A stretch of DNA of 64,000 bases. Source: a virus (taxonomy: Duplodnaviria; Caudoviricetes). The stretch lies in the IMG/VR virus record IMGVR_UViG_3300027029_000001, positions 2,966-66,965 of that record; one strand, given 5' to 3'. This document shows positions 1 to 64,000 of the stretch, one piece after another. The notes below the pieces were generated by a model, which had not been told where the DNA came from, did not search any database, and saw only the letters and a program-made list of their open reading frames with translations. The number at the start of each line of letters is the position of its first letter. The stretch's first letter is position 1. Made by a program: the position numbers and the translations under genes.

Positions 1-2
1 CG

Positions 3-3000: not shown

Positions 3001-3242
3001 TGGTCAATGCGTCGTGCCCGGCGATCAGCAACGGGACCTGGGAAGGCAGCGGATCATATCTGTCCTACGATGGCCGGTTTGCCACGTCGGCGGCGACTAT
3101 GAACATGGCCCATGCCCTCGGGTACAGTCCGACGCAGGCCGCAGCCGCGCATACGCTGATGATGACCGGCGTCGGAGGAAACTCGACATATGCGAATTAC
3201 CCCATGGAGGGGATCAGCTCCACTTACGGATATGGGCCATGA
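3..3242 (+). CDS. Large Cys/Thr/Ser-rich late protein, 5'-truncated; N-terminal RIFT-barrel-like region and a region resembling PcRGLX/YetA-type polysaccharide lyases; possible receptor-binding protein or depolymerase
   Basis: Frame is open from base 3 to the ATG at 117; motifs YQADSCVFWNDGSL, RGMAWTLAPIMNAARFLP and WQDSYLAW; 24 Cys; paralogue of 63056..64000. Lyase-like assignment is by memory of motifs only. Confidence 0.75.
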   Translation, partial: PFYQSFNITGSNVPTATDTRSVYNSAGSSTPVGTDQTCMTSGDTCFAWSNFKGFADGQIPSGDIAVPSIGATAIRYQADSCVFWNDGSLMGCRFKYFLPQLAAGATEQITYTATSGSYDHTSSCTISTITCVTGSSDYKVHITNDNQMARTLSSAWGNTGQWVDFGFYVSGGSVTSGYLRHPEPALDQSCNPCGTMGPFTMSGCSTTNAQYTITSNSSAPYDATAITITNPGAGCPGNTTGLSSGNGTCDFNTIAAGGSGTTLQQTEEGQLEDTFVGWGAFLDDSASTPDTWLHCKIIVERWKYADGTTYAFRAVAMVTNGVYINHGSIPMNDYDADWMNGSTEIRGASDGSTTTWTRIYQYGQTGWATLRPDGRPDWSANSDALNAVISTFTTADKLDLKGSELATPCCDETIPISTKTLSATGNQSMSGDEGSYYPLCYCNTDSVPSWEEGGSHLFLAPMPYNYANYYLAVDSASDKGLSFLQNIRLSAIGTWGAIGGSAEPATGYPVNMISSTTYPLLTPTRTSANSLPLSGIYDMQFVANGAGSVQVAADQGGTPVEPPFTHFPSTTLLADYLIEGDPLTLEMMTAVAGIAQTTPLSWAVTLNGTSTTYNPVPWMMGQGTRGMAWTLAPIMNAARFLPSSRPEQPYLEAVMKESFTFLDAYWPYVGSMNVPEGTNGTKSYDMTGLGILLNPNNLTTVNPGVVTMSTIQWQDSYLAWEMMQAGVFWGGKYSDILTDAGYFMNNYQVPNTDAPCAYDYNSYVEPWAQNEAGLPNTNWCSNIACSTVGRYNVNVFFGSNFDSVAGTTDVYATTWNWANGEYAGNSAGGSTSRTTAAAGIGTTTMSMDGAISAVTGPTMVMDCGSSGCGPGDNNGAIPPNTVATISGSTVALSNAIVSPGVASNDTIMFSGWYDYPTGSRVAMPALSLIKPVNVYAQNEGTPNPYNRGTWPPPPLSETGTYYWCPDATYPLLKGTLSTTAACPGTPVTFTESDTWSAGFVVNASCPAISNGTWEGSGSYLSYDGRFATSAATMNMAHALGYSPTQAAAAHTLMMTGVGGNSTYANYPMEGISSTYGYGP

Positions 3243-3496: not shown

Positions 3497-3720
3497 ACCC
3501 AGGCGTGTTCGATGCTGAGGCGGTCGGCAAGCGCAGGCGCGAGCTGTTCCCGGTAGACGACCGCGCGCCCTACGACGCCGCCGGGCAGCCGAAATGGCGC
3601 GGCGGCACGCAGAAGGCGCATTGCGAGTATTGCCCGGTGCCGGAGGGCCAGGATTGCGTGAAGGTGTGCGTCGTCGAGCGCGAGGCGCAAGCGGCCAAGG
3701 ACGGGGTGAAAATATCATGA
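3493..3720 (+). CDS. Hypothetical Cys-containing protein
   Basis: ATGA-coupled on both sides; HCEYCP..DCVKVC. Confidence 0.6.
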   Translation: MNPGVFDAEAVGKRRRELFPVDDRAPYDAAGQPKWRGGTQKAHCEYCPVPEGQDCVKVCVVEREAQAAKDGVKIS

Positions 3721-4040
3721 CTGGCAAAGCGGTTTGCGCCGCCGTGCTGGCGCTGGGGCTTTCGGGCTGCACGGCCGCTGGCAGCCTCGGCGGAGCGGTC
3801 ACGGATGTTTCGAGCCAGATCGACCAGCTCCTGCCGCAGCTGATCATGGAAAAGGCGGTGGCGCTCCACAACCTGCAGGTCGGGCTGCAGCAGGTCAACG
3901 CGACGCCGGGCATGGTGACGACGGTGCCGATGGTCGGGACGACGGCTCCGGTGACGACCCCGATCGTCCCGGCAAACCCCGTCTCGCCGCCGACCGTGCC
4001 GTCGCCGACGTTGCCGACCGGCCCCACGCCCAACGGGTAG
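3717..4040 (+). CDS. Lipoprotein in lysis region
   Basis: MTGKAVCAAVLALGLSG-C lipobox; Pro/Thr-rich tail. Confidence 0.75.
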   Translation: MTGKAVCAAVLALGLSGCTAAGSLGGAVTDVSSQIDQLLPQLIMEKAVALHNLQVGLQQVNATPGMVTTVPMVGTTAPVTTPIVPANPVSPPTVPSPTLPTGPTPNG

Positions 4041-4046
4041 CGGCTG

Positions 4047-4391
4047 ATGTACGCCTACAACCCAAGCCCGGCCGAGACGGCGCTGCTCTGGCTCATTGGC
4101 GAGCGGGAGAGCAGTTGGAACCCGACCGCAGCCAACCCCGGAAGCTCGGCACGCGGCATTTTCCAATTCATTCTCAGCACATGGCAGTCCTTTGGCATGC
4201 TGGCTGGGGTTGACCTGACTGCGTATCCCTCCGCCGACAAGGCGCCGCAAGCGGTGCAGCAAGCGGTGGCGCTTCTGTTGCTCCGCGAGGTCGGGCCGAA
4301 CAGCTCGGAAAGCTGGCAGGCGAGCGGCCCTTACCCGACGTTCCAGGAAGCTCAGGGAATGCTTGCGGCGGTTGGGATAGCGAATCCATGA
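4047..4391 (+). CDS. Endolysin, lytic transglycosylase / lysozyme-like fold
   Basis: ERESSWNP...SARGIFQFILSTW matches SLT motifs with catalytic Glu. Confidence 0.85.
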   Translation: MYAYNPSPAETALLWLIGERESSWNPTAANPGSSARGIFQFILSTWQSFGMLAGVDLTAYPSADKAPQAVQQAVALLLLREVGPNSSESWQASGPYPTFQEAQGMLAAVGIANP

Positions 4392-16237: not shown

Positions 16238-16861
16238 CTAAAGGACTCGCCGTCTGGCAATGCCAAGCCCGACGAGCGCCAGCCCCAGAAGCGCCAGCGT
16301 GCCCGCTTCCGGCACGGCCGCCGTGTCCTCGATCTGCCCCGCCGAGCCGGTCAGGAACTCGTCGCCCGGCGACAGCGCGAATTGGTCGAGCAGGGTCCTC
16401 ACGGTCGCGAAGATGTATTCGCCATCCGTCGTCCCGCCGGGGAAGCTGGCGAGGAACGCCGGGTCGCCCGACGACACATACGTCCAGTCGAATGCGATGT
16501 GCGGGTTCGGGCTGCCGTCGTCGATTTGAGTGATTTGCGCCGTCCCGCTGGCCGTATCGCCGTCCGGGAAGGCGACCGAAAGCGCCTCCTCCCCGCCCGA
16601 GACGACCATAAAGACGCCGTCGACCTCGGGGCCGGTCGCGAACGTCGTCGGGCCGAAATGCGCGCCGTCTGGAACCGTCCCGACCTCCGAGTCGAACAGC
16701 GCCGACGCCCAATACCCCGGTGAGTTCGCCGCGATCGTACCGTTTCCGGTGGACACGAGGTCGTAGGACATGCCGAGGCTGCCGCCGATCGTGATTTGGC
16801 CGGCCCACGCCGGCGCCGCGAGCGCGCCGAGGATCGTGCCGGCGAGAAGTAGCTGTTTCAT
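16238..16861 (-). CDS. Exported PEP-CTERM-type protein
   Basis: Signal MKQLLLAGTILGALAAPAWA; C-terminus VPEAGTLALLGLALVGLGIARRR. Confidence 0.85.
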   Translation of the reverse strand: MKQLLLAGTILGALAAPAWAGQITIGGSLGMSYDLVSTGNGTIAANSPGYWASALFDSEVGTVPDGAHFGPTTFATGPEVDGVFMVVSGGEEALSVAFPDGDTASGTAQITQIDDGSPNPHIAFDWTYVSSGDPAFLASFPGGTTDGEYIFATVRTLLDQFALSPGDEFLTGSAGQIEDTAAVPEAGTLALLGLALVGLGIARRRVL

Positions 16862-23092: not shown

Positions 23093-23387
23093 CGGAGCAC
23101 AACTGAACCAAACCGCCGCTGATTTGCTGGCGGCAAAACGATACCTCGAAACGCATGGATGGATACAAGGGGCAGCAGGCGTGGATGGTGGCCCACGGTG
23201 CATTGTGGGTGCCTCGAACAGTGTGACAAATGATCTAGGGCGTTTGTTTGATCTTAGAGACACCTTCGCTGCGGTGGTTGGATGTCCTAGCAAGTGGAAT
23301 GACCGGCCAGGACGCACCGTCGACGAAGTGTACGCCTTGTTTGACAAGGCTATCGCAATGGCAATGGAGCAAAATGTAAATGCGTAA
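23082..23387 (+). CDS. DUF6197-like phage protein
   Basis: YLETHGWIQG...CIVGA...WNDRPGRTVDEVYALFD. Confidence 0.7.
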   Translation: MPFDGAQLNQTAADLLAAKRYLETHGWIQGAAGVDGGPRCIVGASNSVTNDLGRLFDLRDTFAAVVGCPSKWNDRPGRTVDEVYALFDKAIAMAMEQNVNA

Positions 23388-23703
23388 CCTGTCGCTAGCC
23401 GCTGCCGCGCTGATCCTGTTGGGCGGCGCGGCCTATGCCGAGGACAGGGCCGACGTCATGATCGGCATACAGTTGCAAGCAGTCAGCAAAGACGGTCGCC
23501 CTGTCGGATTCCCACTCATCGCGCCGCCGCCTGATGCCTCTGTGCCTCCGGGCCGCCCGGATTTGTCGATCAAGATCGACAGGCCCAAGCGTCCGCAACC
23601 CGCATCCAGCACTGCGATCTATCTGGGCGGACGAGGGGGCTGCCTGATAATGTACAACAATGTTTGTGTAATAAATGGGACCAAGATGGAGGTGTGGAAA
23701 TGA
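23380..23703 (+). CDS. Exported protein
   Basis: Signal MRNLSLAAAALILLGGAAYA. Confidence 0.7.
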   Translation: MRNLSLAAAALILLGGAAYAEDRADVMIGIQLQAVSKDGRPVGFPLIAPPPDASVPPGRPDLSIKIDRPKRPQPASSTAIYLGGRGGCLIMYNNVCVINGTKMEVWK

Positions 23704-24119
23704 GCTGGCCGTCTAAGCGAGTGTGGGCTGCGGTCGCGTGCCTTGTCGTCTCGACAGCGGCCTATGCCCAGTCGCCGACCCCGCAGCCGCCGCCGGCGCA
23801 GCAGCAGTCGCCGGACCAGCGGCTGATCGCCTACCTGTTCGGCCAGCGCGACAACTACGAGGAGGCGATCATCCGGCTGCAGGCGCGGATCGCGAGCCTC
23901 GAAGCGCAGAAGGACGCGCCGAAGCCGCAGGCTAGCGTGACGCCGCCCGACGCGGTGGCGCGGCAACTAAGCGACCTGCGGCAGCAGCTGGCGAACAGCC
24001 AGGCGCGGGCGACAAGCCTCAACCAGCAGCTGGCGGCGGCGAACCAGCGCATCGCGGCGCTGAGCCCGCACGGGCCGCAGTCGGTTGCGCCGCAGCCATC
24101 GAGGGCTTTGCCGAAATGA
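23700..24119 (+). CDS. Exported coiled-coil protein
   Basis: Signal MSWPSKRVWAAVACLVVSTAAYA; Gln-rich heptads. Confidence 0.75.
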   Translation: MSWPSKRVWAAVACLVVSTAAYAQSPTPQPPPAQQQSPDQRLIAYLFGQRDNYEEAIIRLQARIASLEAQKDAPKPQASVTPPDAVARQLSDLRQQLANSQARATSLNQQLAAANQRIAALSPHGPQSVAPQPSRALPK

Positions 24120-33140: not shown

Positions 33141-33439
33141 TGGCTTACGCACTACTGAAAATTTTCGGGGATGAGAAAGGCATCAGGGCAGCCTATGACG
33201 CCAATCCATCGGTAATCAAGAGATGCATAGAAGAAGAAATAGCTGCCCATGCACCACTGCTGCTGCGCAACTATGTCTCGCGCGAATATATGATGATGTT
33301 GCGGCGCGTGCTTGGTATTCACGGAGAAAACCTTCATCAGCAGCATGAGAAACAGATGCGGGACGCATTGGCGAGGGCGGGCATTACGAAAGAAACGGTC
33401 CTGGCCAATATCCAGACCGAGCTGGCGAAGAAGCCTTGA
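33137..33439 (+). CDS. Hypothetical protein (lower GC insert)
   Basis: ATGA overlaps on both sides. Confidence 0.55.
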   Translation: MMAYALLKIFGDEKGIRAAYDANPSVIKRCIEEEIAAHAPLLLRNYVSREYMMMLRRVLGIHGENLHQQHEKQMRDALARAGITKETVLANIQTELAKKP

Positions 33440-34080
33440 TGTCTGGGGCTCCTGGAGGCAGCGGGCTCGGGGGAGGGGGGCTATTCTCCGGGCTGGTTAC
33501 ACAACTCAATCTGATTGCCCAGAATCTCGGGCGCCTCGTCACGCAGACGGCGCTTGCGGTCGTAATCCCGGTCACGCAGGGCGGCACGGGCGCCACCACG
33601 GCAAGCCAGGCGCGCACCAACCTCGGCATTACGACGCTGGGCACGCCCAATCACCTGGCGGCCTTCGCGACCGCGAACTCGTTTCAGGACGGCGGTCTTG
33701 GCGGTTCCTACCAGCTCGGCGCGCTGCTTGGGGCAAATTTCAATGTGACGATCGATCAGGCAATCCTAGTCGCGTTGCCTCCGGGAGCCTCCGCTTATGT
33801 CATCGAGGCCATCGTGGCGACGCATGCCAGCGTGTCGCTGACGACTGCGGTTGGGGGCATCTACCTTGGCCCGAGCAAGACCGGGCTCCAGGTGGTGTCG
33901 GCAAGCCAGGCCTATTCGGGGTTGACCGGGACAGCGATTAATACGGCAGGGAGCGCACTGCCCCTGACGGTTTACCAAGGGGCTTTTTTGAGTGTCGGCG
34001 TAGTGTATTTTTCATTGACAACGCCGCAGGGTGTTGCCGCCACGGCTGACCTGCGCGTATATGGCAGGGCATTGTTCTAG
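33436..34080 (+). CDS. Short tail-fibre-like structural protein, no signal peptide
   Basis: VIPVTQGGTGATTASQARTNLG fibre motif. Confidence 0.7.
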   Translation: MMSGAPGGSGLGGGGLFSGLVTQLNLIAQNLGRLVTQTALAVVIPVTQGGTGATTASQARTNLGITTLGTPNHLAAFATANSFQDGGLGGSYQLGALLGANFNVTIDQAILVALPPGASAYVIEAIVATHASVSLTTAVGGIYLGPSKTGLQVVSASQAYSGLTGTAINTAGSALPLTVYQGAFLSVGVVYFSLTTPQGVAATADLRVYGRALF

Positions 34081-53265: not shown

Positions 53266-53508
53266 ATGAACGACGAGATGCGCACGAAGCTCAAGAAATT
53301 ACGGGATCGCATTGCCGGCCACGATCCTCAACCGGTCCCGGCAATGCTGCTCGCCGAGCTGATCGACCACATGCTGGCTGCCGCAACGCCGGCCGAGCAA
53401 AAGAAAGCTCCCGAACCAACCGGGGCACCACACGCACAATCCCCGGCTGGCACCCCAGTCGTTTTCGGGCCGGCTACTGGAATGGAGAGCGGCAATGAAA
53501 AGCGGTAG
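53266..53508 (+). CDS. Hypothetical protein
   Basis: AGGAG RBS. Confidence 0.6.
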   Translation: MNDEMRTKLKKLRDRIAGHDPQPVPAMLLAELIDHMLAAATPAEQKKAPEPTGAPHAQSPAGTPVVFGPATGMESGNEKR

Positions 53509-53878
53509 TCACGGCCACGTCGGCAAGCACGAGGAAGAGCACAAGGCTCATAGCGAGCACCACCATCACGCCGGCCACAAGGGCGCTGTCGTGCATGTCC
53601 ATGCCAAGGCGGCGGGCGGCCGTATGGAGCCCCCGGAGCCGAAGGCCAAGGAGGACGAGCGCACGAAGGAAATGGTCGCCGAGGAAGATCGTGGCGAAAA
53701 GCGCGGCGGCTCCGTCAAGGGCAAGATGACCAAGCATCGCGCCGACCGGCGCGCTCGAGGGGGCCGGATGACACCGAAGGAGCCGTTCTCGGGTGCCGGC
53801 AGCACGCCAAAGATGTCCTACGAGTCGAAGCTCAGCCACGTCGACATGGGCGGCAAGGGCAGCGAGCCCCGTCCCTGA
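53495..53878 (+). CDS. His/Lys-rich protein with xGG-hydrophobic repeats
   Basis: HSEHHHHAGH, KRGGSVKG, ARGGRM. Confidence 0.7.
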   Translation: MKSGSHGHVGKHEEEHKAHSEHHHHAGHKGAVVHVHAKAAGGRMEPPEPKAKEDERTKEMVAEEDRGEKRGGSVKGKMTKHRADRRARGGRMTPKEPFSGAGSTPKMSYESKLSHVDMGGKGSEPRP

Positions 53879-53889
53879 GAGGTGTCGAT

Positions 53890-54180
53890 ATGGTGGCGAG
53901 AACGCCTAGCGGGTCGGTAAAAGCGTCGGCGCGCCATGCTGCGGAAAAGCGCGGGCACACCATGCCCGGCGGGTCTTTCCCGATCAACAATGCGGGAGAC
54001 CTCCAAAATGCCAAGCACGACATCGGCCGGGCGAAAAACCCGGCGGCGGCGCGTCGATGGGTCAACAAGCGCGCGCACGAGATGGGCGAGCCCGGCATCG
54101 GCGAAAAGCGCGGCGGCAAGGTCAATGGCCGTGAAACGATGCGGCGCCCTGACCGGCGCGCACGCAAAAATGGCGACTGA
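53890..54180 (+). CDS. Small basic conserved phage protein
   Basis: MPGGSFPINNAGDLQNA...KRAHEMG. Confidence 0.7.
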   Translation: MVARTPSGSVKASARHAAEKRGHTMPGGSFPINNAGDLQNAKHDIGRAKNPAAARRWVNKRAHEMGEPGIGEKRGGKVNGRETMRRPDRRARKNGD

Positions 54181-54182
54181 CG

Positions 54183-55001
54183 GTGCAGGGCGTTCCCGGC
54201 ACACCAAGTGGGACTTACGCATTCCAGTTGCCCTATGGCGGGGTCATGCTGGAAGCGTTCTCGCGCTGCCAGATGCGCCCGACCGAATTGGGCACCCAGC
54301 ACACGCATGATTTCACGGTTTCCATCAACCTGGCGCTCCAGTCCTGGATCAATAAGGGCGTCAACCTCTTTTCGGTCATCCAGGGCTTCATCCAGATTCA
54401 GCCGAATGTCGCGAGCTACACGCTGCCTCCCGAAATCGTGTCGCTGACGGATGTCTACTTCAACCAGATCGTCTCGACGGGCCCTGGCCCGGACTGGGAC
54501 TCGCCGCTCTACGATCCTTCGCAGCCGATCGTCACGAACGATCCGCAGATTGTCGTCACGCAGAGCCTGGACCGCTGGATACAGCCGCTTGGCCGCGCCG
54601 ACTATGCGCGCATTCCGAACAAGACGATCCCTGGCCTGCCGACAAGCTATTGGGCTGATCGCCTCGGCCCTCCCGAGCCGTTGACGGTCACGTTCTGGCA
54701 AGTACCGACCGAAGGCTACCCGAATTGGGGTGCGACCTATTTCGGGGTCCGGCAGCTACAGGATGCGCACCTGCAAAACGGCGAGACCCCGGACGTCCCG
54801 AACCGCTTCCTCGATGCGCTGTGCGCCGAGGGCGCGCTGCGAATGGCACGGAAGTATGCGCCGGCGCTGATCGGCGCCCGGGGACAAGGCGGCCTGTTGG
54901 ACGATCGCGATGAGGCGTGGGCTTTGGCGATTGCCGAGGACACGGAAAAGGGTGCGGCGATCAGGTTCAATATGGACATGGCCGGCTACTGGCAAATGTG
55001 A
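54183..55001 (+). CDS. Head-tail adaptor / tail tubular-type protein
   Basis: SINLALQSWINKGVNLF...DYARIPNK...PTSYW...DVPNRFLDALC. Confidence 0.75.
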   Translation: MQGVPGTPSGTYAFQLPYGGVMLEAFSRCQMRPTELGTQHTHDFTVSINLALQSWINKGVNLFSVIQGFIQIQPNVASYTLPPEIVSLTDVYFNQIVSTGPGPDWDSPLYDPSQPIVTNDPQIVVTQSLDRWIQPLGRADYARIPNKTIPGLPTSYWADRLGPPEPLTVTFWQVPTEGYPNWGATYFGVRQLQDAHLQNGETPDVPNRFLDALCAEGALRMARKYAPALIGARGQGGLLDDRDEAWALAIAEDTEKGAAIRFNMDMAGYWQM

Positions 55002-55984
55002 TGCCTTACGCCAATCAATCCGGCCATGCCCGCACCAACCCGCGAGCACCGCAGGCATTCGCAGTTTGCGATGACTGTGGCGCCTGGTACAATCGCGTCA
55101 ATCTGTACGTGCAGCGCGAATGGTACGGCGACAATCTCGCCGACACCGGCTACCGCGTCTGCCGGCGCTGCCTGTCGAAGCCGCAGCCGCAGCTAAAGCC
55201 GGTCATCCTCCCGCAAGACCCGATCCCGATCGTCGACCCGCGACCGGAGCGCTATCAGGCGCAACAGAGCATCAACGGCCCGACTCGGGCAATCGTCTGG
55301 CAGAACCAGAACGGCTTTACCCAAATCGTCGGGCCGCAAGGCGTCCGAATCCAGATGCCGGTGCTGGCGGAGTTCGATCCGACAAACCCGATCGAGGGCA
55401 AGAACCAGCTGTGGATCAGCCTGTTCAATGCCGGCTATCCGGTCCCGGTGCTGACCGACGACTTCGGCAACATTCTGACTGACGACTTCGGGAATGTGCT
55501 GCTGCAGGACGGCGTGACCGAAGGCAGCGGCACAATTGGGTTTCCGGGGGTCGGGCAGAAGATATTTGCTGGATACCCATTGCCGATCCTGATCAGCGAC
55601 GACGGCCTTTCGGTGCTGACCGCCGACGACGGGACGGTGCTGCTCCAGGATGGTGCCGACCCGACTGGCGTCCCGCTCTACGTCCCGACCGTGGCGGACG
55701 CCTACGCGCGCAACAACATCATGATCTATAACCCGACCGGGCTGATGCTGTGCGCCGCGCAGAACAGCGCTCCGACTATCGGGATCAGTGCGGCAAGCCT
55801 TATCGGCTCCCTGCGAACCGGCAATCCGACTGCATCGAATGCCGAGGCCGGGACGGTCTATGTCGGAACCGGCGAAGCGCTGATGCAGAACATCCTCGAA
55901 ACGACCGATGCGGTCCTTTGGCAGGGCAGTGTCTGGGTATTGGGATTGGTGCCTGGCGCACCGTACTGGGCTTGGGAATGGTGA
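55001..55984 (+). CDS. Zn-ribbon virion protein with extended acidic repeat region
   Basis: CDDCG...CRRC...DPIPIVDPRPE; LTDDFGNILTDDFGNVLLQDG. Confidence 0.75.
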   Translation: MPYANQSGHARTNPRAPQAFAVCDDCGAWYNRVNLYVQREWYGDNLADTGYRVCRRCLSKPQPQLKPVILPQDPIPIVDPRPERYQAQQSINGPTRAIVWQNQNGFTQIVGPQGVRIQMPVLAEFDPTNPIEGKNQLWISLFNAGYPVPVLTDDFGNILTDDFGNVLLQDGVTEGSGTIGFPGVGQKIFAGYPLPILISDDGLSVLTADDGTVLLQDGADPTGVPLYVPTVADAYARNNIMIYNPTGLMLCAAQNSAPTIGISAASLIGSLRTGNPTASNAEAGTVYVGTGEALMQNILETTDAVLWQGSVWVLGLVPGAPYWAWEW

Positions 55985-57432
55985 TGATGATTTTCAGATT
56001 TGTTATTTTTGCTGCACTGGGATTATTGGCGCTGGTTAATTCGGCGTGGGCGGCGACATCGACGATCAACCCCACGCTGCCGGCTCCGGGGTTGCCCTAT
56101 ACGTCGTCGGTGATCCGCAACAATTTCCAGGCAGCCGCGAATGATATCAATGCGCTGCTAAGCACGAATGGCGTGGGCGGCCCGACGACCTCGATCGTCA
56201 ATGACCTTCCACTGTGGAACAGCACCACCGGAAACAAGCTCAGCGACCCCGGAAATACCTTTTCGGTGGCCGGCAACGTCCTTCAGGTGCCGCAGATTGC
56301 GACGACGCCCCTGATCACCTGGAGCGGCAGCAGTTCGGGCGCGGCAGCTCTCGCCGGCATCTGGCAGCAGGAAAACCTCAGCGGAACGTCGTCGGCAGGG
56401 AACGGGGCGCAGCTCTCGGCCAATCTCCTCGCGGCGACCGACAACCTCATCGCACCCCCTCCGATCTATGCGATGTCCCTATGGGACGTGGAGGACACGA
56501 TCGGAACCGGGGCGCAGGGCGCTCGCAATGCGATCAAGGCATGGAACACAGTGCAGGCGACGCCCACCGTCAAGGGCACGCCGGGCGACAATTATCCGGC
56601 TTATGTCGGCGTGTTCCCCGGCGGGTATCTCGACGTCAACCTCGGCGGCATTGCGACATCGCCGCTGTCATCGACGGCCGGCTCCCTGTACGGCATGAAC
56701 CCGAACGTCACTCTCGGCCCGAATGCCACGAATATTTACGGCGTCATCGGACAAGAGAACGACATCACCGTCGAATCCGGGGCGTCGGTCGGGCAGAAGA
56801 TCGGCATCGACATTATTCAGGCGTCGACAGACGCTGAGCGCGGCTCGGTTGTCGATGCGGCAATCATGCTGTTCAACCAGCCGGGTGCGGTCGGCTGGAA
56901 TTGCGGCCTATGTTTCGGCGGGAATGGCTCAGGCGGCGCATTTCCGATAAATCCGACCGGCGGCACAATGATCGGCACAGTCGGCAGCTCCGGCATGTCG
57001 GCGCTTAATGGCGCGGATTTCTCGGCAGTCTCAATTAGCGGCTGCGCCTTCAAGTCGAATTTTTTCTGCGTCAGTGGCTCCGGCTCGATCACCGGCGACA
57101 ACATCCAATGGAACGGCCATCTGCTGCCGAGCACTGGCGTTGCACCCACGGCCCCCACCTATACATGCGGCAGCCCCTGCACGGCGACCGGCAGCGACAG
57201 CGACGGGACTGTAACCCCAGGCTCCTCAGTGTCCTCGGTTGGCATCACGTTTGCCTTTGCATGGCCCAGCGCGCCGGCTTGTACCGTCACCGGGTTTAGC
57301 ACGTCCGGCAGCATCCTTGCCATTAGCGGCGCCCCCACAGCGACCGCAATCACGGTGACGCAATACAATTCTTCCAATACCCCGATAAATTTCACCGGCA
57401 CGGACGGTTTCACTTATCATTGCATGGATTGA
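55984..57432 (+). CDS. Signal-peptide-bearing fibre-like protein
   Basis: MMIFRFVIFAALGLLALVNSAWA then ATSTINP...IRNNFQAA; 8 Cys; TGATG overlap. Confidence 0.8.
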   Translation: MMIFRFVIFAALGLLALVNSAWAATSTINPTLPAPGLPYTSSVIRNNFQAAANDINALLSTNGVGGPTTSIVNDLPLWNSTTGNKLSDPGNTFSVAGNVLQVPQIATTPLITWSGSSSGAAALAGIWQQENLSGTSSAGNGAQLSANLLAATDNLIAPPPIYAMSLWDVEDTIGTGAQGARNAIKAWNTVQATPTVKGTPGDNYPAYVGVFPGGYLDVNLGGIATSPLSSTAGSLYGMNPNVTLGPNATNIYGVIGQENDITVESGASVGQKIGIDIIQASTDAERGSVVDAAIMLFNQPGAVGWNCGLCFGGNGSGGAFPINPTGGTMIGTVGSSGMSALNGADFSAVSISGCAFKSNFFCVSGSGSITGDNIQWNGHLLPSTGVAPTAPTYTCGSPCTATGSDSDGTVTPGSSVSSVGITFAFAWPSAPACTVTGFSTSGSILAISGAPTATAITVTQYNSSNTPINFTGTDGFTYHCMD

Positions 57433-57436
57433 GGCG

Positions 57437-57730
57437 ATGACTGTCCGCGTCGGCCTTGGAACACTGGCGGCACTGATCGTTTTTGGTGTTCATGCGCAGG
57501 CACAGACCGGCCCTAGCACTTGGGCGCAAAGCGTCATGAGGGCCCCGCAGGCGACGCCGCAGACTGGCGATGTTGTCGGCTTTGTCCATAACGGCCTGAC
57601 CTTCAAGTGCATTGTCGGGACGGCCGGATGCTTCAACGGCAGTGGAAGTAGCGGCGTCGTGCTGGTCGGTGGCGACACCACGAGCTGCACGTTGGCCGGC
57701 GGCGACACGACGACATGCGTAGGAGATTAG
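57437..57730 (+). CDS. Small exported protein with two Cys pairs
   Basis: MTVRVGLGTLAALIVFGVHAQA; KCIVGTAGC, SCTLAGGDTTTC. Confidence 0.75.
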   Translation: MTVRVGLGTLAALIVFGVHAQAQTGPSTWAQSVMRAPQATPQTGDVVGFVHNGLTFKCIVGTAGCFNGSGSSGVVLVGGDTTSCTLAGGDTTTCVGD

Positions 57731-57732
57731 GG

Positions 57733-60700
57733 ATGCGCCTTTTTTGGTCGCTGGTCGCCATTGCGGCGCTGCTGTCGTCGCCGGCATGGGCGCAGAACAA
57801 GTACATCTCGCAAATGACCCCTGTCGGGTCGGTATCGGGAACCGACACGTTTCAGGATTGCGCGACAAACGGGTGCGGTTCGTCGGTTCCCTCGGGGCAA
57901 GCCTCGGCCGCGCAGCTTTCGACGTACATGAACGCGCATTTGCCGGCAATTAACCTGGCAACCGGGGGCGCCGGCGGGGTGACAGGCATCCTCCCGGTCG
58001 CCAATGGCGGCACGAACGCATCATCGGCCTCTGGAGCGTCGCTCGACAACATCACGGGGTTTTCTTCAACCGGGCTGCTCGACCGTACTGGCGCTGGCGC
58101 ATATTCGTTTCTGGGGTTGCCGCTCAGCGTGGCGAATGGCGGCACCGGCCTAACGTCATGGACCGCGACGGCGCTCCCTCTCGGCAATGGCACGTCCAGT
58201 CCGACGTTCCTCTCTCCGGTTAACGGCGATTGCGTAATCGGGTCGGGAGGAGCGTGGATTGCCGGCTCATGTAGTGGGTCCGCTGGCAACATGACGGGCT
58301 CTGGAGCAGCTACGACCGGCGATCTCATCCAAGCCAACAACACCGGCACGCCACTCAACAGCGCGACCGATACGGGGATCGTGGCGACGAACGTCGTTAC
58401 GGCAACCAGCACGCTCACGAGTGGCGGATTGGCGATTGGCGGCGGCACAAAGACGATCGGTAGCGTTCTGGCTCCCGTGAACGGCGATTGCGTGATCGGG
58501 TCAGGCGGAGCGTGGATTGCCGGAGCATGTAGCGGCGGATCGTCGGCGTTTAGCGCCCTGACCAGCGGCACGAACACGACCGCAGCAATGGTGGTCGGCT
58601 CGGGAGGGTCGCTTGCAGTTTCGGGCTCCGGCACGATCGCCGCCACGTCGGCGCCCGCCAGCGGCCTTACCGGCCTCGGCACGGGGGTCGCGACGGCCCT
58701 GGGGCTTGCGGTAAATGGCTCCGGCGCCATCTCGCTGACGACCTCCCCGACCTTCGTGACGCCCGCGCTCGGAACACCTTCGGCGGCCGTGCTCACGAAT
58801 GCGACGGGCCTGCCGCTTTCGACGGGCGTGACAGGCAATCTGCCGGTTGGAAACCTGAACTCCGGCACGGGGGCATCATCGTCAACATATTGGCGCGGCG
58901 ACGGTACGTGGGCTACGCCGTCAGGCGCGGGCACCGTTACCAGCGTGGGACTGACAACGCCCGCATGGCTGACCGTCGGCGGCTCACCCGTGACTGGGGC
59001 TGGCACGCTGGCAGTTACCGGGACGAGCGAGAGCGGCAACCTTGTTGTGGCATCGCCGAATGGCTCGTCTGGCGCCGTGACACCGCGAGCCCTGGTCAAT
59101 GCAGACCTCCCGGCGACCGCCGTGACGCCCGGCAGCTACACCAATACGAACATCACGGTCAACCAGCAGGGCGTGATCACCGCCGCCTCAAACGGCTCCG
59201 GCGGCGGCACTGCGGTCATCTTTGTAGGCGGCCCGACAGCCGGCTCAGCAAATGCGCAGACTCTTGCGACCACGGCGCCGACCGGCTTTGCCTTCACCAA
59301 CGGCTATGTTGTCCGTTCGACGATCGGTACGGCGAACACCGGGGCGACCACGCTGAGCGTCAACGGCACCTCGGCCGCAGCGGTGGCGAAGATGACCCCG
59401 ACCGGCCTCCAGGCGCTCGGCGGCGGCGAATTGCTGAACAACGGCCAGGTCTACGATTTCCAGGCCGAGACCTCGTGCCCGGCGCCGATCTCGGCGAACT
59501 GCTACGTCGAGTCGACCATCGTCGGGGCCGGGGTCACGCAGGCGACGACATCGACCTCCGGGACCGGCGCATCGCCGACCGTGGCACAGTTCGCGTGGGG
59601 ACAGACGATCAACCTCAATTCCGCGAGCCTGACATCGACGGTGCCGGTATCGACGACCTTGCCGTCAAACGGCGGGGTGGTCATCAACGCGATCAACGCC
59701 GGCACGATCGCCGCGACCTCGCCGGACGTGATCACGTCGGCGGCGGGCACGACAGGTGCCGGCGGCTCGGTCGCGGTCAATGCCGGATGTGTGGCGACCG
59801 TCACGACCAACGGCTCCGGGACGATCAACGTCGCCGGCAACCTCTGTGGTGGGGGCGGCTCGGGAACGGTCAACAACTCGACCGTGGCCGGCGCGGCGAC
59901 CTACTATGCGACGACCGGAACCGCCGTGTCGTTTGAGCCGAAGTGGCTTTATGACAGCGGGAACAACCTTAACGGAAACTTCAATACAGCTTCTGTTCCG
60001 TCCGGCCTGACGCCGACAGGTGGCGGGGTGCTCGATGTTGCCGTAGACGGCAGCAACAGTGGATACAATGCGCTGGCGAGCAACGGCGGTAACGTTGTCT
60101 TTACGGGGTATGCAACGAGCGGCACCGTAGCGTCTCCGACTGCTCTCGCGGGAAGCTCGACGATCCTCGCTGTCGCCGGCCGCGGCTACAATGGCTCGGC
60201 CTACACGACCGGCTCGCAAGCGAATATGTCTTTCGTGACGACGGGAACCTGGTCTACCGGCTCGACGCCGACAGCGATCACCTGGGGCACGACGCTCAGT
60301 GGTTCGACGAGCCCGGTCAACAACATGACCCTCGGCTCCAACGGCTGTCTGGACCTTCCGTCTTCAAACACTTGCCCCGGCGCAAACGGCATTGGCATTA
60401 CCGGGCCGCTCGACATTGCGACCAGCTACTTCACGACTGACGTGACGAATGCCGGGACGACCGGGACGACGGTCAACAAGCTCGCCAAGATTGTCGGGGC
60501 CACGGCGGTCATCGCCGCGACGACGGACACGAACGGAATCTCGGGCGTCGTCATGGCCGGCGCCGGAACGAGCGGTAATGCCCAGATTGCCAAGGAAGGG
60601 CAGGCCAGCCTCGCCTTCGACGGAGCGACGACCGCCGGCGATTACGTCCAGATCAGCTCGACGACAGCGGGCGACGGGCACGACACCGGGGCGGCTACTT

Positions 60701-61386
60701 GCCCGTCGAGCGGCCAGGTCATCGGCAAGGTGCTTTCGACCAACGGCGGGGCCGGGACATACACGATCGCGGTCGGGTCGCAGGGCTGCACCGGAAGCGG
60801 CAGCGGCGGCGCTACCTGCGACTCCGGCTTCACACTCTCGACCTACTCGGGGCAGTGCGTTGATACGCAGACGCCGGCTACGAGCGCGAATTGCCCCGGC
60901 TCGACGGCCTGCATTGTGTTTTTCCCGTCTGGTGGGCTAACCCGGAACAACTACACGCTCGAATGCCGAAACCTGATCGCCGGATCGGGTAACAGCATCG
61001 GCGTCCAATATGGAGAGAGCACGGGGCCAACTTGGGAAATCGCGACCTACACAAACGAAATCCAGTATTGGAATAGCGCCACCGCCCCATCTGAAGTTAC
61101 CAGCCCAGGCACCACATCTTTGTTCCCCAATGCCACCGCCACGTCTGGAACGGTTGGATTGACTTTCACTACCGCTTTCCAAGGCTTAGCGACATCTGGT
61201 ATCAACAAGGCGGCATCCTATAATGCCTTGGACTTTACCGGAACGGCCACTTATGGCAACGTCATAGCGGCAGTTTACACTGGCGACACCAATGCCGTTA
61301 CGGGGCTGCGGGTGGTCGACACGCAGGGTACGCCGACCAGCTTAGTCAGCCCATCGAGCTGCACGCTTACCCAGCAAGGCACCTGA
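57733..61386 (+). CDS. Signal-peptide-bearing long tail-fibre-like protein
   Basis: MRLFWSLVAIAALLSSPAWA; fibre motifs LPVANGGT and YWRGDGTW; 20 Cys mostly in close pairs; repeat PVNGDCVIGSGGAWIAG x2. Confidence 0.85.
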   Translation: MRLFWSLVAIAALLSSPAWAQNKYISQMTPVGSVSGTDTFQDCATNGCGSSVPSGQASAAQLSTYMNAHLPAINLATGGAGGVTGILPVANGGTNASSASGASLDNITGFSSTGLLDRTGAGAYSFLGLPLSVANGGTGLTSWTATALPLGNGTSSPTFLSPVNGDCVIGSGGAWIAGSCSGSAGNMTGSGAATTGDLIQANNTGTPLNSATDTGIVATNVVTATSTLTSGGLAIGGGTKTIGSVLAPVNGDCVIGSGGAWIAGACSGGSSAFSALTSGTNTTAAMVVGSGGSLAVSGSGTIAATSAPASGLTGLGTGVATALGLAVNGSGAISLTTSPTFVTPALGTPSAAVLTNATGLPLSTGVTGNLPVGNLNSGTGASSSTYWRGDGTWATPSGAGTVTSVGLTTPAWLTVGGSPVTGAGTLAVTGTSESGNLVVASPNGSSGAVTPRALVNADLPATAVTPGSYTNTNITVNQQGVITAASNGSGGGTAVIFVGGPTAGSANAQTLATTAPTGFAFTNGYVVRSTIGTANTGATTLSVNGTSAAAVAKMTPTGLQALGGGELLNNGQVYDFQAETSCPAPISANCYVESTIVGAGVTQATTSTSGTGASPTVAQFAWGQTINLNSASLTSTVPVSTTLPSNGGVVINAINAGTIAATSPDVITSAAGTTGAGGSVAVNAGCVATVTTNGSGTINVAGNLCGGGGSGTVNNSTVAGAATYYATTGTAVSFEPKWLYDSGNNLNGNFNTASVPSGLTPTGGGVLDVAVDGSNSGYNALASNGGNVVFTGYATSGTVASPTALAGSSTILAVAGRGYNGSAYTTGSQANMSFVTTGTWSTGSTPTAITWGTTLSGSTSPVNNMTLGSNGCLDLPSSNTCPGANGIGITGPLDIATSYFTTDVTNAGTTGTTVNKLAKIVGATAVIAATTDTNGISGVVMAGAGTSGNAQIAKEGQASLAFDGATTAGDYVQISSTTAGDGHDTGAATCPSSGQVIGKVLSTNGGAGTYTIAVGSQGCTGSGSGGATCDSGFTLSTYSGQCVDTQTPATSANCPGSTACIVFFPSGGLTRNNYTLECRNLIAGSGNSIGVQYGESTGPTWEIATYTNEIQYWNSATAPSEVTSPGTTSLFPNATATSGTVGLTFTTAFQGLATSGINKAASYNALDFTGTATYGNVIAAVYTGDTNAVTGLRVVDTQGTPTSLVSPSSCTLTQQGT

Positions 61387-63056
61387 TGCGCCTGCTGGCC
61401 TTCCTGCTGGCGCTTTTTGCAGCCAGCCATGCCGACGCGAGTCTGTTGAAGCCGCGCGGTAGCGGCGGCCCTACCGCGCCGGCCGTCATCACGAACTTCG
61501 ACGGCCTCGGCACCGCGATCCCTAACCAGGTGATGACGCTCGACACGACGGGGAATCAAATCCAGGACGGGCAAGATTCCTACCTTCAGTGTCAGGCGGG
61601 GATGCCAAGCTGCCCTGTGGGGACATGGTTTCGATACACGGTGGATTGGTCGTGCGGATTTGTTGCCGAGGTGGCCGGGTCGCAGTGGTGCGGATTTCTG
61701 GTCTTTTCCTCGACGGATCGAGTTCACTGGACCAATCTCGGCCACCTTTTCTCTCCGACCAGTTGGAACTCTCTGTGCAACGGTCTATCGACGGCAATTC
61801 AGACCTGCAATGGGCAGCGGATAATCTATAACGCATCGACCTCCACATACCTTCTGTGGTTCCTGACCTACAGCCCGAGCACGGTCGGGGTTGGGATAGT
61901 CGCATGCACAACCCCATCGAGTGGTTGCACCAATCAGGCCGCCCCGACGCTGGAAGGCGGAGCTAACTATCCGATGGACGACATGGTGCCGTTCGTCTGG
62001 ACGGACGGCAACCCGTACATTCTTTATTCCGATCATACGCTTGTGATGCACATTGAGGAGCTTAACTCCACTTACACAAGCGGAAACGGCACTTTCTCTG
62101 GGGTGATCTCGCCAACCGACAAGGAGGGCCTTGGTTTCTTTACTAGGCTCGGCGTCTCATACATTACCTACGGAACCCCCTGCTTCTGGTGCAATGGCAC
62201 CGATACGGACTATGCCACAACGACAGCAACAAGTAATCTGACCGCCGCCACGTGGACTGGGGGTGGGGCGATCAGCACGATCACCTGCGGCGGCCAGCCG
62301 TTTACGACAAGCCAAGAGACCGTCGGCGGCAGCACGGTATATTTCTTTAATGCCGCAGAGAATCGAACGGCAAGCCAGACACAGGGCGACCACTCGACGG
62401 GGTTCTTCAATCAGGGGCTCGCCAACTCCTTCACTCAGGAACTTACTTTTACGGGCTCGGCAATCAATACGCTGACGTGTCCGACAACTGTGACCTTGAC
62501 GGGAGTCACGGCACTCCCTCCACCTAGCCCGCCGAGCGGCACCGATCAATCAAATTGGAACGCCAACTTTGGGGACATCTGCGATATCGTCAGTGGCGTC
62601 TCGCGGTTGCAGGTATTCAAGGCCGGGGTAAGCGGACACTTGAATGCGGTCCATACGTCGCTGGCTCAAAATTGTACCGCCGCGAGTTGCACTGGGGCTG
62701 GGTATCCAGGAACCAACGCAGTTACGGTCACGATCGCTGCATGGACCGGGAGCGCGCCAGGAACAATCTTGGCGACCGCCTCGATTACCGCGTCCGGCCT
62801 CCCGTGGTCGTTGCAAGACCAGGACGTGACTTTTGGCTCGCCGCCATCGCTGACCTCCGGCACGCAGTACGCGATGGAAATCTCGGCCAACAACAGCTCA
62901 AGCTACGGCTGTGTCGCTACGGCCTATGACAACGCGAACACCTATGGTGCAGCGAACGGCAGCGAGTGGGTTAATACCGGGGGCGGGTGGACGCAGGACA
63001 GCAACGGCGCGTCGGGAACCCGGTCGATGCGGTTCGCGACTATCATGGGGCCGTGA
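61386..63056 (+). CDS. Exported GH43-like beta-propeller glycoside hydrolase with C-terminal beta domain
   Basis: Signal MRLLAFLLALFAASHADA; GNQIQDG, FSSTDRVHW, YLLWF, DMVPFVWTDG, EGLGFFTR..YITY..PCFWC; 16 Cys. Confidence 0.7.
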   Translation: MRLLAFLLALFAASHADASLLKPRGSGGPTAPAVITNFDGLGTAIPNQVMTLDTTGNQIQDGQDSYLQCQAGMPSCPVGTWFRYTVDWSCGFVAEVAGSQWCGFLVFSSTDRVHWTNLGHLFSPTSWNSLCNGLSTAIQTCNGQRIIYNASTSTYLLWFLTYSPSTVGVGIVACTTPSSGCTNQAAPTLEGGANYPMDDMVPFVWTDGNPYILYSDHTLVMHIEELNSTYTSGNGTFSGVISPTDKEGLGFFTRLGVSYITYGTPCFWCNGTDTDYATTTATSNLTAATWTGGGAISTITCGGQPFTTSQETVGGSTVYFFNAAENRTASQTQGDHSTGFFNQGLANSFTQELTFTGSAINTLTCPTTVTLTGVTALPPPSPPSGTDQSNWNANFGDICDIVSGVSRLQVFKAGVSGHLNAVHTSLAQNCTAASCTGAGYPGTNAVTVTIAAWTGSAPGTILATASITASGLPWSLQDQDVTFGSPPSLTSGTQYAMEISANNSSSYGCVATAYDNANTYGAANGSEWVNTGGGWTQDSNGASGTRSMRFATIMGP

Positions 63057-64000
63057 TGCAGGGAATCCTCACGACCCTGGCGGCAGCGGTAGCTGGTGTC
63101 GCCGCAGCGTGCGGTAAGACCGCATCATCCACCAGAATCCGCGCAAAATCTGCCACAGCCCGGCGTCGTTCGAGCGAAGATGCTTCACGTTTTGCCTCCG
63201 GGATCGCGACCCTGAGCCGCGCCAGCTGCTATCGTACATACATTCAGCGCCTTTGGCTCGCCCTTTTGTTGATCCTGGCCGCCGCCGGGCCGCTCGACGC
63301 GGCACTGCTGATCAGGGTTCATGGCGGATCGCCGCCGAGCAGCGGAAGCTCTGTCGTCTATACGATGATGGTCACAAATACGTCCGGCTCGACGACGCCG
63401 ACGGCTGCGAAACAGACCTGCATCACCAGCGGCAACACTTGCTTCCCCAAGCAGCAGCCGGCTTGGTTCGCCCTTGGAGCTGTGCCCACGGGCTATATCG
63501 CGGTTCCGACCGTCGGCGGATCGCCTGTTCTCTACCAGGCCGATGAACTTGTGTATTGGCCTGACGGGTCGCTGCGCGGCGGGGTGTTCACGTTCTTTCT
63601 GCCTCAGCTAACGGCGGGAGGCTCGGAACAAATCACCTGGACTTCCCAGCTCGGAAGCTACAACAACACGTCCTCCGGCACGGTCGCCGACGTGACTGGT
63701 GCCACGGATTACAAGGTCGAGCTAACCAACGAGTCGCAGGTCACGTCCAATCTGCCGGGCGTCCCGCCTTACAATGCGATAGGCTGGCACGTCAGCGGCG
63801 GCGCTGTCACAAGCGCGTTTGTGCGCTACGCGGGCGGCCTGAGCGGCACCGTCGCCACCTTGGGCTACGACTGTACTAATTCCGGGGCCGGGTGCGGCAC
63901 TCAGGCGGTCGGGACGATTTACGGATGCTCGGTAGCGCCCGTGGTCGACGTGACCTACAGCGGGTCGACTAACCTGGCCGCGTCGGCAAGCGTCGTCAGC
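63056..64000 (+). CDS. Exported-type paralogue of the 3..3242 protein, 3'-truncated (absent from ORF track)
   Basis: Open from ATG 63056 (TGATG overlap) to window end; QRLWLALLLILAAAGPLDA signal-like segment; QTCITSGNTCF, YQADELVYWPDGSL, FLPQLTAGGSEQIT. Confidence 0.85.
   Translation, partial: MQGILTTLAAAVAGVAAACGKTASSTRIRAKSATARRRSSEDASRFASGIATLSRASCYRTYIQRLWLALLLILAAAGPLDAALLIRVHGGSPPSSGSSVVYTMMVTNTSGSTTPTAAKQTCITSGNTCFPKQQPAWFALGAVPTGYIAVPTVGGSPVLYQADELVYWPDGSLRGGVFTFFLPQLTAGGSEQITWTSQLGSYNNTSSGTVADVTGATDYKVELTNESQVTSNLPGVPPYNAIGWHVSGGAVTSAFVRYAGGLSGTVATLGYDCTNSGAGCGTQAVGTIYGCSVAPVVDVTYSGSTNLAASASVVS

Follow-up and report, generated by a model that had tools for sequence, protein, structure and literature searches.

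The 64,000-nucleotide (nt) stretch of DNA analyzed here, referred to below as the window, comprises bases 2966-66965 of one 66,965-bp contig, IMG/VR record IMGVR_UViG_3300027029_000001 from a tailed virus (Duplodnaviria; Caudoviricetes), and our subject is a cassette of six genes, ~14.2 kb or 21% of the genome, that is preceded by a leaderless Zn-ribbon gene and followed by lysis genes. Export, leader cleavage and disulfide bonding of the cassette proteins are very probable on the sequence evidence set out below, and we propose that the six genes make up the outer host-recognition set of the phage, with one tailspike-like protein and its small partner, one long fibre, one GH43 glycosidase and a pair of large paralogues. 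An earlier note on this DNA had described five consecutive, coupled genes with Sec leaders; the starts and leaders of genes 1-4 bear this out, the leader of gene 5 at 63056 is atypical, and the cassette extends to six genes rather than five.

All six genes are on the + strand. Gene 1 (55984-57432) encodes a tailspike-like protein, predicted to be exported, of 482 amino acids (aa) with a 23-aa Sec leader and 8 Cys; its ATG overlaps the upstream stop codon (TGATG) and its mature N-terminus is an anchor motif, STINP...IRNNF...NDINAL. Gene 2 (57437-57730; 97 aa, 22-aa leader, 4 Cys) encodes a small, predicted exported partner at the position where classical phages have a fibre assembly or accessory protein, and in the related record L009 a leader-bearing 102-aa counterpart directly follows the gene 1 homologue. 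Gene 3 (57733-61386), whose start is preceded by a GGAG ribosome-binding site, encodes a long, predicted exported fibre of 1217 aa with a 20-aa leader, 20 Cys, two copies of a 15-residue Cys-bracketed loop, and the fibre repeats and close Cys pairs that the earlier note had quoted. Gene 4 (61386-63056), which likewise starts in a TGATG overlap, encodes a predicted exported, GH43-fold glycosidase of 556 aa with an 18-aa leader and 16 Cys. The first 315 codons of gene 5 occupy positions 63056-64000, and the whole gene, which continues across a circular junction, encodes 1065 aa with 22 Cys after the leader. Finally, the 3' part of gene 6 lies at positions 1-3242, its last 1041 codons being 117-3242 and its start ~700 nt before the window; the product has 1313 aa, a 19-aa leader and 28 Cys, and is a paralogue of that of gene 5 (E 4e-101 and 34% identity across 760 aa in a comparison with the gene 5 orthologue).

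Gene 5 had been taken to be incomplete at the end of the stretch. The gene is not cut by a genome end, however, as 7 nt (CGTCAGC) are common to both contig ends (window 63990-64000 and the very start of the contig, which precedes the window), and when the ends are joined into a circle of ~66,958 bp gene 5 stays in frame through the junction. The resulting protein matches from end to end an orthologue of 1065-1066 aa in L008, from another metagenome. The end overlap and the in-frame gene indicate that the record is a complete phage genome of ~66,958 bp, circular or circularly permuted.

Leaders and cysteines

The N-termini encoded by genes 1-4 and 6 have the charge, h-region and -3/-1 residues of Sec leaders that are cut by signal peptidase I, with gene 5 being atypical. 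A positive n-region is found in five of the six leaders, the uncharged h-regions extend over 11-14 residues and small residues occupy -3 and -1, giving predicted cleavage contexts of AWA↓A, AQA↓Q, AWA↓Q and ADA↓S for genes 1, 2, 3 and 4, respectively. The earlier note had named true starts downstream of the hydrophobic segments as a point to check; for genes 1-4 no alternative in-frame start was found just past these segments. Such N-termini occur in seven of ~30 proteins longer than 200 aa, six of the seven being contiguous, for which the probability under random placement is ~5e-5. The sequences of the leaders drift in orthologues while the leader property is retained. Thus, the homologues P0009 and P0019 have different leaders ahead of the same mature N-terminus, the gene 1 homologue P0006, once its start is corrected, has a leader immediately ahead of the gene 1 anchor motif, and soil populations of the phage have two variants inside the gene 1 leader, I to V and V to A.

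Gene 5 has a leader of 83 residues with two hydrophobic segments, the second just ahead of a GGSPP motif. From the ATG at 63056 an uncharged hydrophobic stretch is followed by an Arg-rich linker and, ~65 codons on, by the leader-like segment, beside which a canonical start codon was not found. The 63-codon extension that precedes this leader (63056-63245) is conserved in the L008 orthologue, and soil variants include a compensated indel pair that keeps the frame of the extension; substitutions in the first 189 nt of the gene are without third-position bias. The extension could be part of an extended signal region, or the gene could start at a non-canonical codon. In gene 6 a clean leader is followed by the same GGSPP motif.

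After removal of the leaders the Cys counts for genes 1-6 are 8, 4, 20, 16, 22 and 28, all of them even; the first four, along with the single Cys of the capsid protein and the absence of Cys from both ejection proteins, agree with what had been reported. The mature cassette proteins contain 98 Cys in 4545 residues (2.16 per 100 aa), compared with 39 in 7427 residues (0.53 per 100 aa) for 21 other late proteins, where six counts are even and seven odd. For homologues we pooled the sets obtained with the N-termini of genes 3 and 1 and divided them by one simple leader heuristic. Mature Cys counts are even in 90 of 95 leader-bearing homologues (binomial p 1.6e-21); with the leader included the number falls to 74, and for leaderless homologues counts are even in 12 of 29. 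Median contents are 1.55-1.65 Cys per 100 aa with a leader and 0.24-0.70 without one. That parity becomes even only once the leader is deleted argues that the leader is removed and that all of the remaining Cys are paired, and we regard this as the strongest sequence evidence available on both points. Conservation of the Cys in homologues, which had been suggested as a check, is also found: within the gene 1 family Cys come and go in pairs, with one pair unique to the present phage and two pairs lost together in P0006, and 14 of the 16 Cys of gene 4 are conserved at an overall identity of 44%. No member of the thioredoxin/Dsb family was recognized among 29 small phage proteins, so that the phage would rely on the enzymes of its host.

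A very different explanation is that the hydrophobic N-termini are not working signal peptides at all, and represent either mis-called starts or virion-internal anchors of proteins that fold in the cytoplasm. The ambiguous start of gene 5 is in keeping with this, as is P0003, a leaderless gene 1 homologue at a prophage end that retains six of the Cys, from which it follows that export is not strictly required for these Cys. These two points weigh against export, as does the manner in which leaders were judged, by inspection and a simple heuristic and not by SignalP. However, the explanation must also contend with the lack of alternative starts in genes 1-4 and with a leader property conserved over dozens of diverged homologues, and the rise in even counts upon leader removal is hard to account for unless the leader is cut and the Cys are paired. 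Taken together, we find it scarcely credible that the leaders do not function.

Homologues, the fibre slot and its natural variants

The proteins of the cassette resemble fibres and glycanases to different degrees. An AlphaFold2 model of gene 1, built from 8 sequences, has a mean predicted local distance difference test (pLDDT) score of 37 and is usable for residues 388-482 only; these last 95 residues are predicted to form a C-terminal beta-sandwich like the distal domains of tailspikes and fibres. The best matches are to the spikes of Pam1 (Z 7.6), LKA1 gp49 (Z 7.5) and AP22 gp53 (Z 7.1), with R-pyocin fibres also present in an overall range of Z 6-7.6, which is middling. A repeat in gene 3 is 77.6% identical over 76 aa to part of a leaderless fibre of Bradyrhizobium phage ppBjS10J-1, and residues 755-875, in the middle of the fibre, match the structure of a Bdellovibrio MAT (mosaic adhesive trimer) fibre, 8oml_A (E 6.9e-6). 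This is the sole match of gene 3 in the PDB; none was obtained for its N-terminus, the solved MAT structures covering mainly C-terminal parts. Gene 4 scores 23.9 bits (E 3.1e-5) against the Pfam GH43 family (PF04616), below the curated cut-off of 32.2. Its Atlas model (predicted template modelling score 0.83) nevertheless superimposes on a GH43 cluster with a template modelling (TM) score of 0.78 over residues 30-555 and a feature score of 0.94, both sides of the comparison being predicted, and has the five-bladed propeller and accessory beta-sandwich of the GH43 fold. The fibre and glycanase labels of the earlier note thus hold for the tip of gene 1, the repeats of gene 3 and the predicted fold of gene 4, with the reservation that the Pfam score of the last is too low. 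Pfam and PHROGs returned nothing for genes 1, 2, 3, 5 and 6, and genes 5 and 6 have no sequence match in the PDB; the AlphaFold2 model of the gene 6 core (3 sequences, pLDDT 26) is unusable.

Seven database relatives of gene 1 were found, four with obvious leaders and a fifth after correction of its start. With residues 1-330 of gene 3 as the query, 64 proteins were recovered. Of these ~50 have leaders and 12-30 Cys, compared with 0-3 Cys in those that are plainly leaderless (P0010, P0055 and P0059, for example). When the mature N-terminus of gene 1 was searched exhaustively and without a profile, 65 representatives were obtained; the motif begins at residue 19-38, directly after a leader, in ~45 of these and at residue 2-5 in ~7. 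A motif scan of species genomes led to nothing that could be confirmed.

In order to place these proteins in context it is useful to consider the lineage of the phage. The genome encodes a large terminase, a virion structural protein, a pair of ejection proteins (1366 and 682 aa), a portal and an HK97-type capsid protein, and the presence of a tyrosine integrase, an ERF recombinase and a PD-(D/E)XK nuclease implies that the phage, a podophage, is temperate. Its closest GenBank record is the uncultured spring-water phage MW202675 (capsid 54% and terminase 40% identical), relatives of its capsid are found in prophages of Rhizobium, Bosea-type, Bradyrhizobium and Acidisoma genomes, and several studies of soil metagenomes contain DNA of the phage itself. 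The same lineage was recovered repeatedly when viral and genome collections were scanned; sister phages and prophages have capsid proteins that are 44-92% identical, and the conserved gene order starts with the capsid and two head-associated genes and continues with the adaptor, the Zn-ribbon protein and the fibre slot.

The fibre slot is filled in two ways. Leader-bearing, Cys-rich genes are found there in L009, L010/L011 and L012/L013, and the first of them always has the gene 1 motif. In L014, MW202675, L025 and most contigs from metagenome-assembled genomes (MAGs) or genomes with a gene at this site the slot is occupied by fibres without a leader; most of these have 0-2 Cys in 335-1640 aa, and a few second fibre genes in such slots have 3-7. 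Together with the conserved leaders and the parity of the Cys, this split between leader-bearing, Cys-rich and leaderless, Cys-poor proteins strongly supports the claim of export and oxidative folding that the earlier note had made. The leaderless L014 fibre (950 aa, 2 Cys), which comes right after the Zn-ribbon gene, starts with the gene 1 motif; residues 6-40 of the fibre are 60% identical to residues 26-60 of gene 1 over 35 residues (E 2e-11), the offset corresponding to one leader, so that an N-terminus homologous to that of a fibre in this slot follows the signal peptide, in line with what had been suggested. A second, widespread type of anchor, the 'LP.A..L.G.E' N-terminus, occurs directly after Met in L030, L031, L039, L041, L046 and L057 and after leaders in P0036, P0052 and L023. 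A weak match between gene 3 and the L031 fibre was also noted (E 0.026). With two anchor families in the same slot, each existing in both states, the job of the anchor appears to be kept after export, and this retention is our main reason for favoring a role in the virion.

The conserved block that includes the slot opens with a tail adaptor-like protein (54183-55001, +; 272 aa, 2 Cys, no leader, phrog_12985), whose homologous N-terminus carries the annotation 'tail adaptor' in MW202675 and whose position is identical in L009-L014. The Zn-ribbon protein that follows (CxxC...CxxC; 55001-55984, +) is predicted to be cytoplasmic and has 327 aa, including a C-terminal extension of 210 aa; its stop codon overlaps the start of gene 1, and its Atlas model is poor. 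The extension is present in all four lineages where a leader-bearing STINP-type fibre comes next (the window, L009, L010/L011 and L012/L013), and the long form, 247-327 aa with a conserved C-terminal domain, was seen only before leader-bearing fibres with the gene 1 motif; short forms of 111-128 aa that lack it are found in L014, MW202675, L024, L025 and L023. A general rule that the long form accompanies leader-bearing fibres was rejected since L023 combines the short form with a leader-bearing fibre. The Zn-ribbon protein is a candidate for the virion-side partner or stub. In two P2-like myophage contigs, L015 and L016, a baseplate stub without a leader is followed by proteins that have a leader and the gene 1 motif.

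Genes 4-6 and three genes of L012 have in common a short motif right after the cleavage site, with bodies that differ. In three soil runs from two studies (X3-X5) the leader of gene 5 is joined directly to the body of gene 6, the crossover falling within 15 nt that both genes share and that code for the motif (window 63322-63337 and contig ~2340-2355, the latter ~700 nt before the window), and these populations lack the body of gene 5, ~3.2 kb. A crossover at this site implies that the motif is both a conserved handle and a point of recombination, and shared N-terminal handles combined with cassette swaps form the pattern of exchangeable receptor-binding modules. Run X5 in addition lacks 849 nt of gene 3, in frame (window 57999-58849); the gap spans the second Cys-bracketed loop repeat, so that fibre length is polymorphic. 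As side observations we note that nine leader-bearing genes lie in a row after the Zn-ribbon gene of L012 (7674-20185), and that two short proteins among the nine (148 and 157 aa) consist of little beyond a leader and the gene 1 anchor motif.

A proposed two-compartment route and its rivals

The route that we propose is as follows. Each cassette protein would be made with a Sec leader and translocated unfolded, signal peptidase I would cut off the leader, and folding would take place in the periplasm, where the Dsb system of the host would pair every Cys. The DNA-filled particle would be built separately, in the cytoplasm, so that particle and exported proteins would meet only at lysis, once a holin has opened the inner membrane, at which point the conserved N-terminal modules of the mature proteins would dock them onto the tail. 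That docking occurs, and that it does so at lysis, is what we infer. The first clear lysis gene past the cassette (3717-4040, +) encodes an o-spanin-like lipoprotein of the outer membrane, which has a lipobox and ends in a Pro-rich tail, followed by a transglycosylase endolysin (4047-4391, +; Pfam Transglycosylas and SLT) that has neither a leader nor a membrane segment, and the block also holds small membrane proteins. An endolysin without a leader leads one to expect a hole-forming holin, whose lesions would mix cytoplasm and periplasm before the outer membrane fails, and the spanin-like lipoprotein and Sec leaders together imply a diderm host, probably a soil bacterium of the Rhizobiales type. 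Fibreless particles of classical phages take up purified spikes in vitro. For the whole chain, from export through periplasmic oxidative folding to docking at lysis, we see the case as evenly balanced.

The overlapping or abutting starts and stops of the cassette and the lysis genes that follow it were counted in favor of a late-operon, virion role, and they count equally against the suggestion that these are lysogenic-conversion surface fibres akin to those of the MAT type, expressed from the prophage and displayed by the lysogen for adhesion or exclusion. The earlier note had named lysogen surface proteins as its alternative, and there is something to be said for this. The phage is temperate, and an integrase is also found in the only other complete leader-bearing phage record checked, the other four of five related records being incomplete; the phage further carries a PEP-CTERM moron, and the gene 3 segment described above matches MAT fibres, which have signal peptides and are displayed on the surface (PMC10769870). 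However, that segment lies in mid-fibre and is not the defining N-terminal domain, and the cassette is translationally coupled to structural genes, runs into lysis genes and, at 21% of the genome, is far above the typical size of a moron. Nor does it have the hallmarks of one, namely its own promoter and terminator, a deviant composition and separability from the late operon: in a scan that considered consensus sequences only, 6 promoter-like sites were counted with 3.4 expected and 16 terminator-like sites with 12.5 expected, which does not amount to enrichment, and a G+C content of 0.61-0.66 is like that of the remaining genome. The cassette genes are probably transcribed along with the head and lysis genes, and we consider display on lysogens to be improbable.

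Several points weigh against the proposed docking. As long as the membrane is intact, cytoplasmic particles are out of reach of periplasmic proteins, and docking as late as lysis would be inefficient since the proteins become diluted. The genome also encodes a short fibre-like protein of 213 aa (33439-34080, +) with neither a leader nor Cys. This protein, which adjoins a nozzle-like gene, has weak PHROG tail-fibre matches (best E 3.5e-5) and is the sole conventional fibre candidate in the genome, could be sufficient for adsorption, so that the exported set need not be the only adsorption device. Gene 4 has only ~12-25 residues before its catalytic fold, leaving scant room for an anchor, and is essentially a secreted GH43 enzyme. 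Finally, GenBank phages (50,697 records) include no relative of the cassette proteins beyond a short fibre repeat, and gene 1, its N-terminus and gene 6 matched nothing there.

Some of the same observations would be expected if the proteins were exported and never joined virions, acting instead as free periplasmic enzymes or adhesins that are released at lysis and that cut or mask the surface polysaccharide of the host. The benefit would lie in escape of the progeny, in avoiding re-adsorption to debris or in a block to superinfection. With such enzymes the problem of topology vanishes, the predicted complete GH43 fold of gene 4 with almost no anchor is accommodated, and the leaderless fibre-like protein elsewhere in the genome is consistent with it. 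Moreover, the sister prophages L024, L029, L033 and L059 are without any fibre gene in the slot, suggesting that the slot is accessory. What is difficult to explain in this manner is that the mature N-terminus of gene 1 keeps the motif that heads the leaderless L014 fibre, for which a free enzyme has no evident need. The shared handles and their swapping are typical of receptor-binding modules that dock onto virions, proteins of this kind follow a baseplate stub in the myophage contigs, and one would hardly expect a soluble enzyme to be built as a 1217-aa fibre with repeats. Release as free enzymes is therefore possible in our estimation but somewhat unlikely.

Returning to docking at lysis, a broader version of the proposal can be formulated in which many soil phages of diderm bacteria assemble in two compartments, with heads and tails made in the cytoplasm, and fibres, spikes and depolymerases exported, oxidised and docked via N-terminal handles only after the holin has joined the two compartments; fibres would have switched repeatedly between a cytoplasmic and an exported form with the anchor kept. 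We judge that this generalization might equally well hold or fail. Textbook assembly of tailed phages takes place wholly in the reducing cytoplasm, and if the proposal is true exported, oxidised fibres would add both a compartment and a timing step, with infectivity tied to Sec, LepB and Dsb of the host. This would explain the absence of such fibres from cultured model phages, and receptor-binding proteins of soil phages would need periplasmic and not cytoplasmic expression in structural and host-range work. A leader combined with an even Cys count provides an annotation rule for metagenomic phages. If the proteins are free exported enzymes instead, they would constitute a large unexplored class of phage-encoded periplasmic glycanases.

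Three further features lie outside the cassette. In the early/lysogeny region, 16238-16861 (-) encodes a protein of 207 aa that has both a signal peptide and a PEP-CTERM sorting motif, which implies a host with an exosortase system. Two adjoining small proteins of the early region (23380-24119; 107 and 139 aa) both have clean signal peptides. Between the head-associated genes and the adaptor there are three small, very basic open reading frames rich in His, Lys and Arg (53266-54180, +), with counterparts in L009, L010 and L014; automatic gene calling wrongly favored a reading frame on the other strand here.

Comparison with known systems

The closest comparison is with the leaderless fibres of sister podophages (L014, MW202675 and MAG or genome contigs binned or labelled as Boseaceae, Opitutae, Terracidiphilus and others), which share with the present phage both the lineage and the order of adaptor, Zn-ribbon protein and fibre. 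There the slot usually contains one to three genes, mostly with the low Cys contents given above, whereas here it contains six leader-bearing genes with 98 Cys. The podophage tailspikes and fibres of Pam1 (7EEA), Pseudomonas phage LKA1 (gp49, 4RU4) and Acinetobacter phage AP22 (gp53, 4MTM) have the same layout of anchor, body and tip as gene 1; to our knowledge, none of them has a signal peptide and all are assembled on the tail in the cytoplasm. Gene 4 is similar in fold to secreted bacterial GH43 hydrolases, many of which also have a Sec leader, but differs from them in lying below the Pfam cut-off, in its location in a phage late operon, in its 16 Cys and in an N-terminal motif that is common to neighbours that are not GH43 proteins.

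For a phage adsorption protein that is exported and oxidised one must look to the filamentous phages. The pIII protein of Ff phages is made with a Sec signal peptide and is disulfide bonded in the periplasm before it joins the particle. Ff virions are, however, assembled at and through the membrane, whereas the present phage is tailed, with a terminase, portal and HK97-type capsid, and is packaged in the cytoplasm. In the literature, of which our full-text coverage was limited, we found no account of signal-peptide-bearing fibres in tailed phages, an absence that is not proof. What is added here is the parity test, a comparison within one lineage of fibres that occupy the same slot with and without leaders, the extent of the cassette as six genes on the circle, and the swap at the N-terminal handle in natural populations.

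The nearest described systems are pIII of filamentous phages and the MAT fibres of Bdellovibrio bacteriovorus. The latter are phage-fibre-like proteins with signal peptides that work outside the cytoplasm, each with an invariant, beta-rich N-terminal domain of ~130 aa right after the signal peptide; their genes are chromosomal, the fibres are located on the predator's own surface, and there is no mention of disulfides (PMC10769870). A segment of 120 residues in gene 3 is like 8OML, as described above, but the proteins considered here are encoded in the late operon of a phage and begin with other N-terminal modules.

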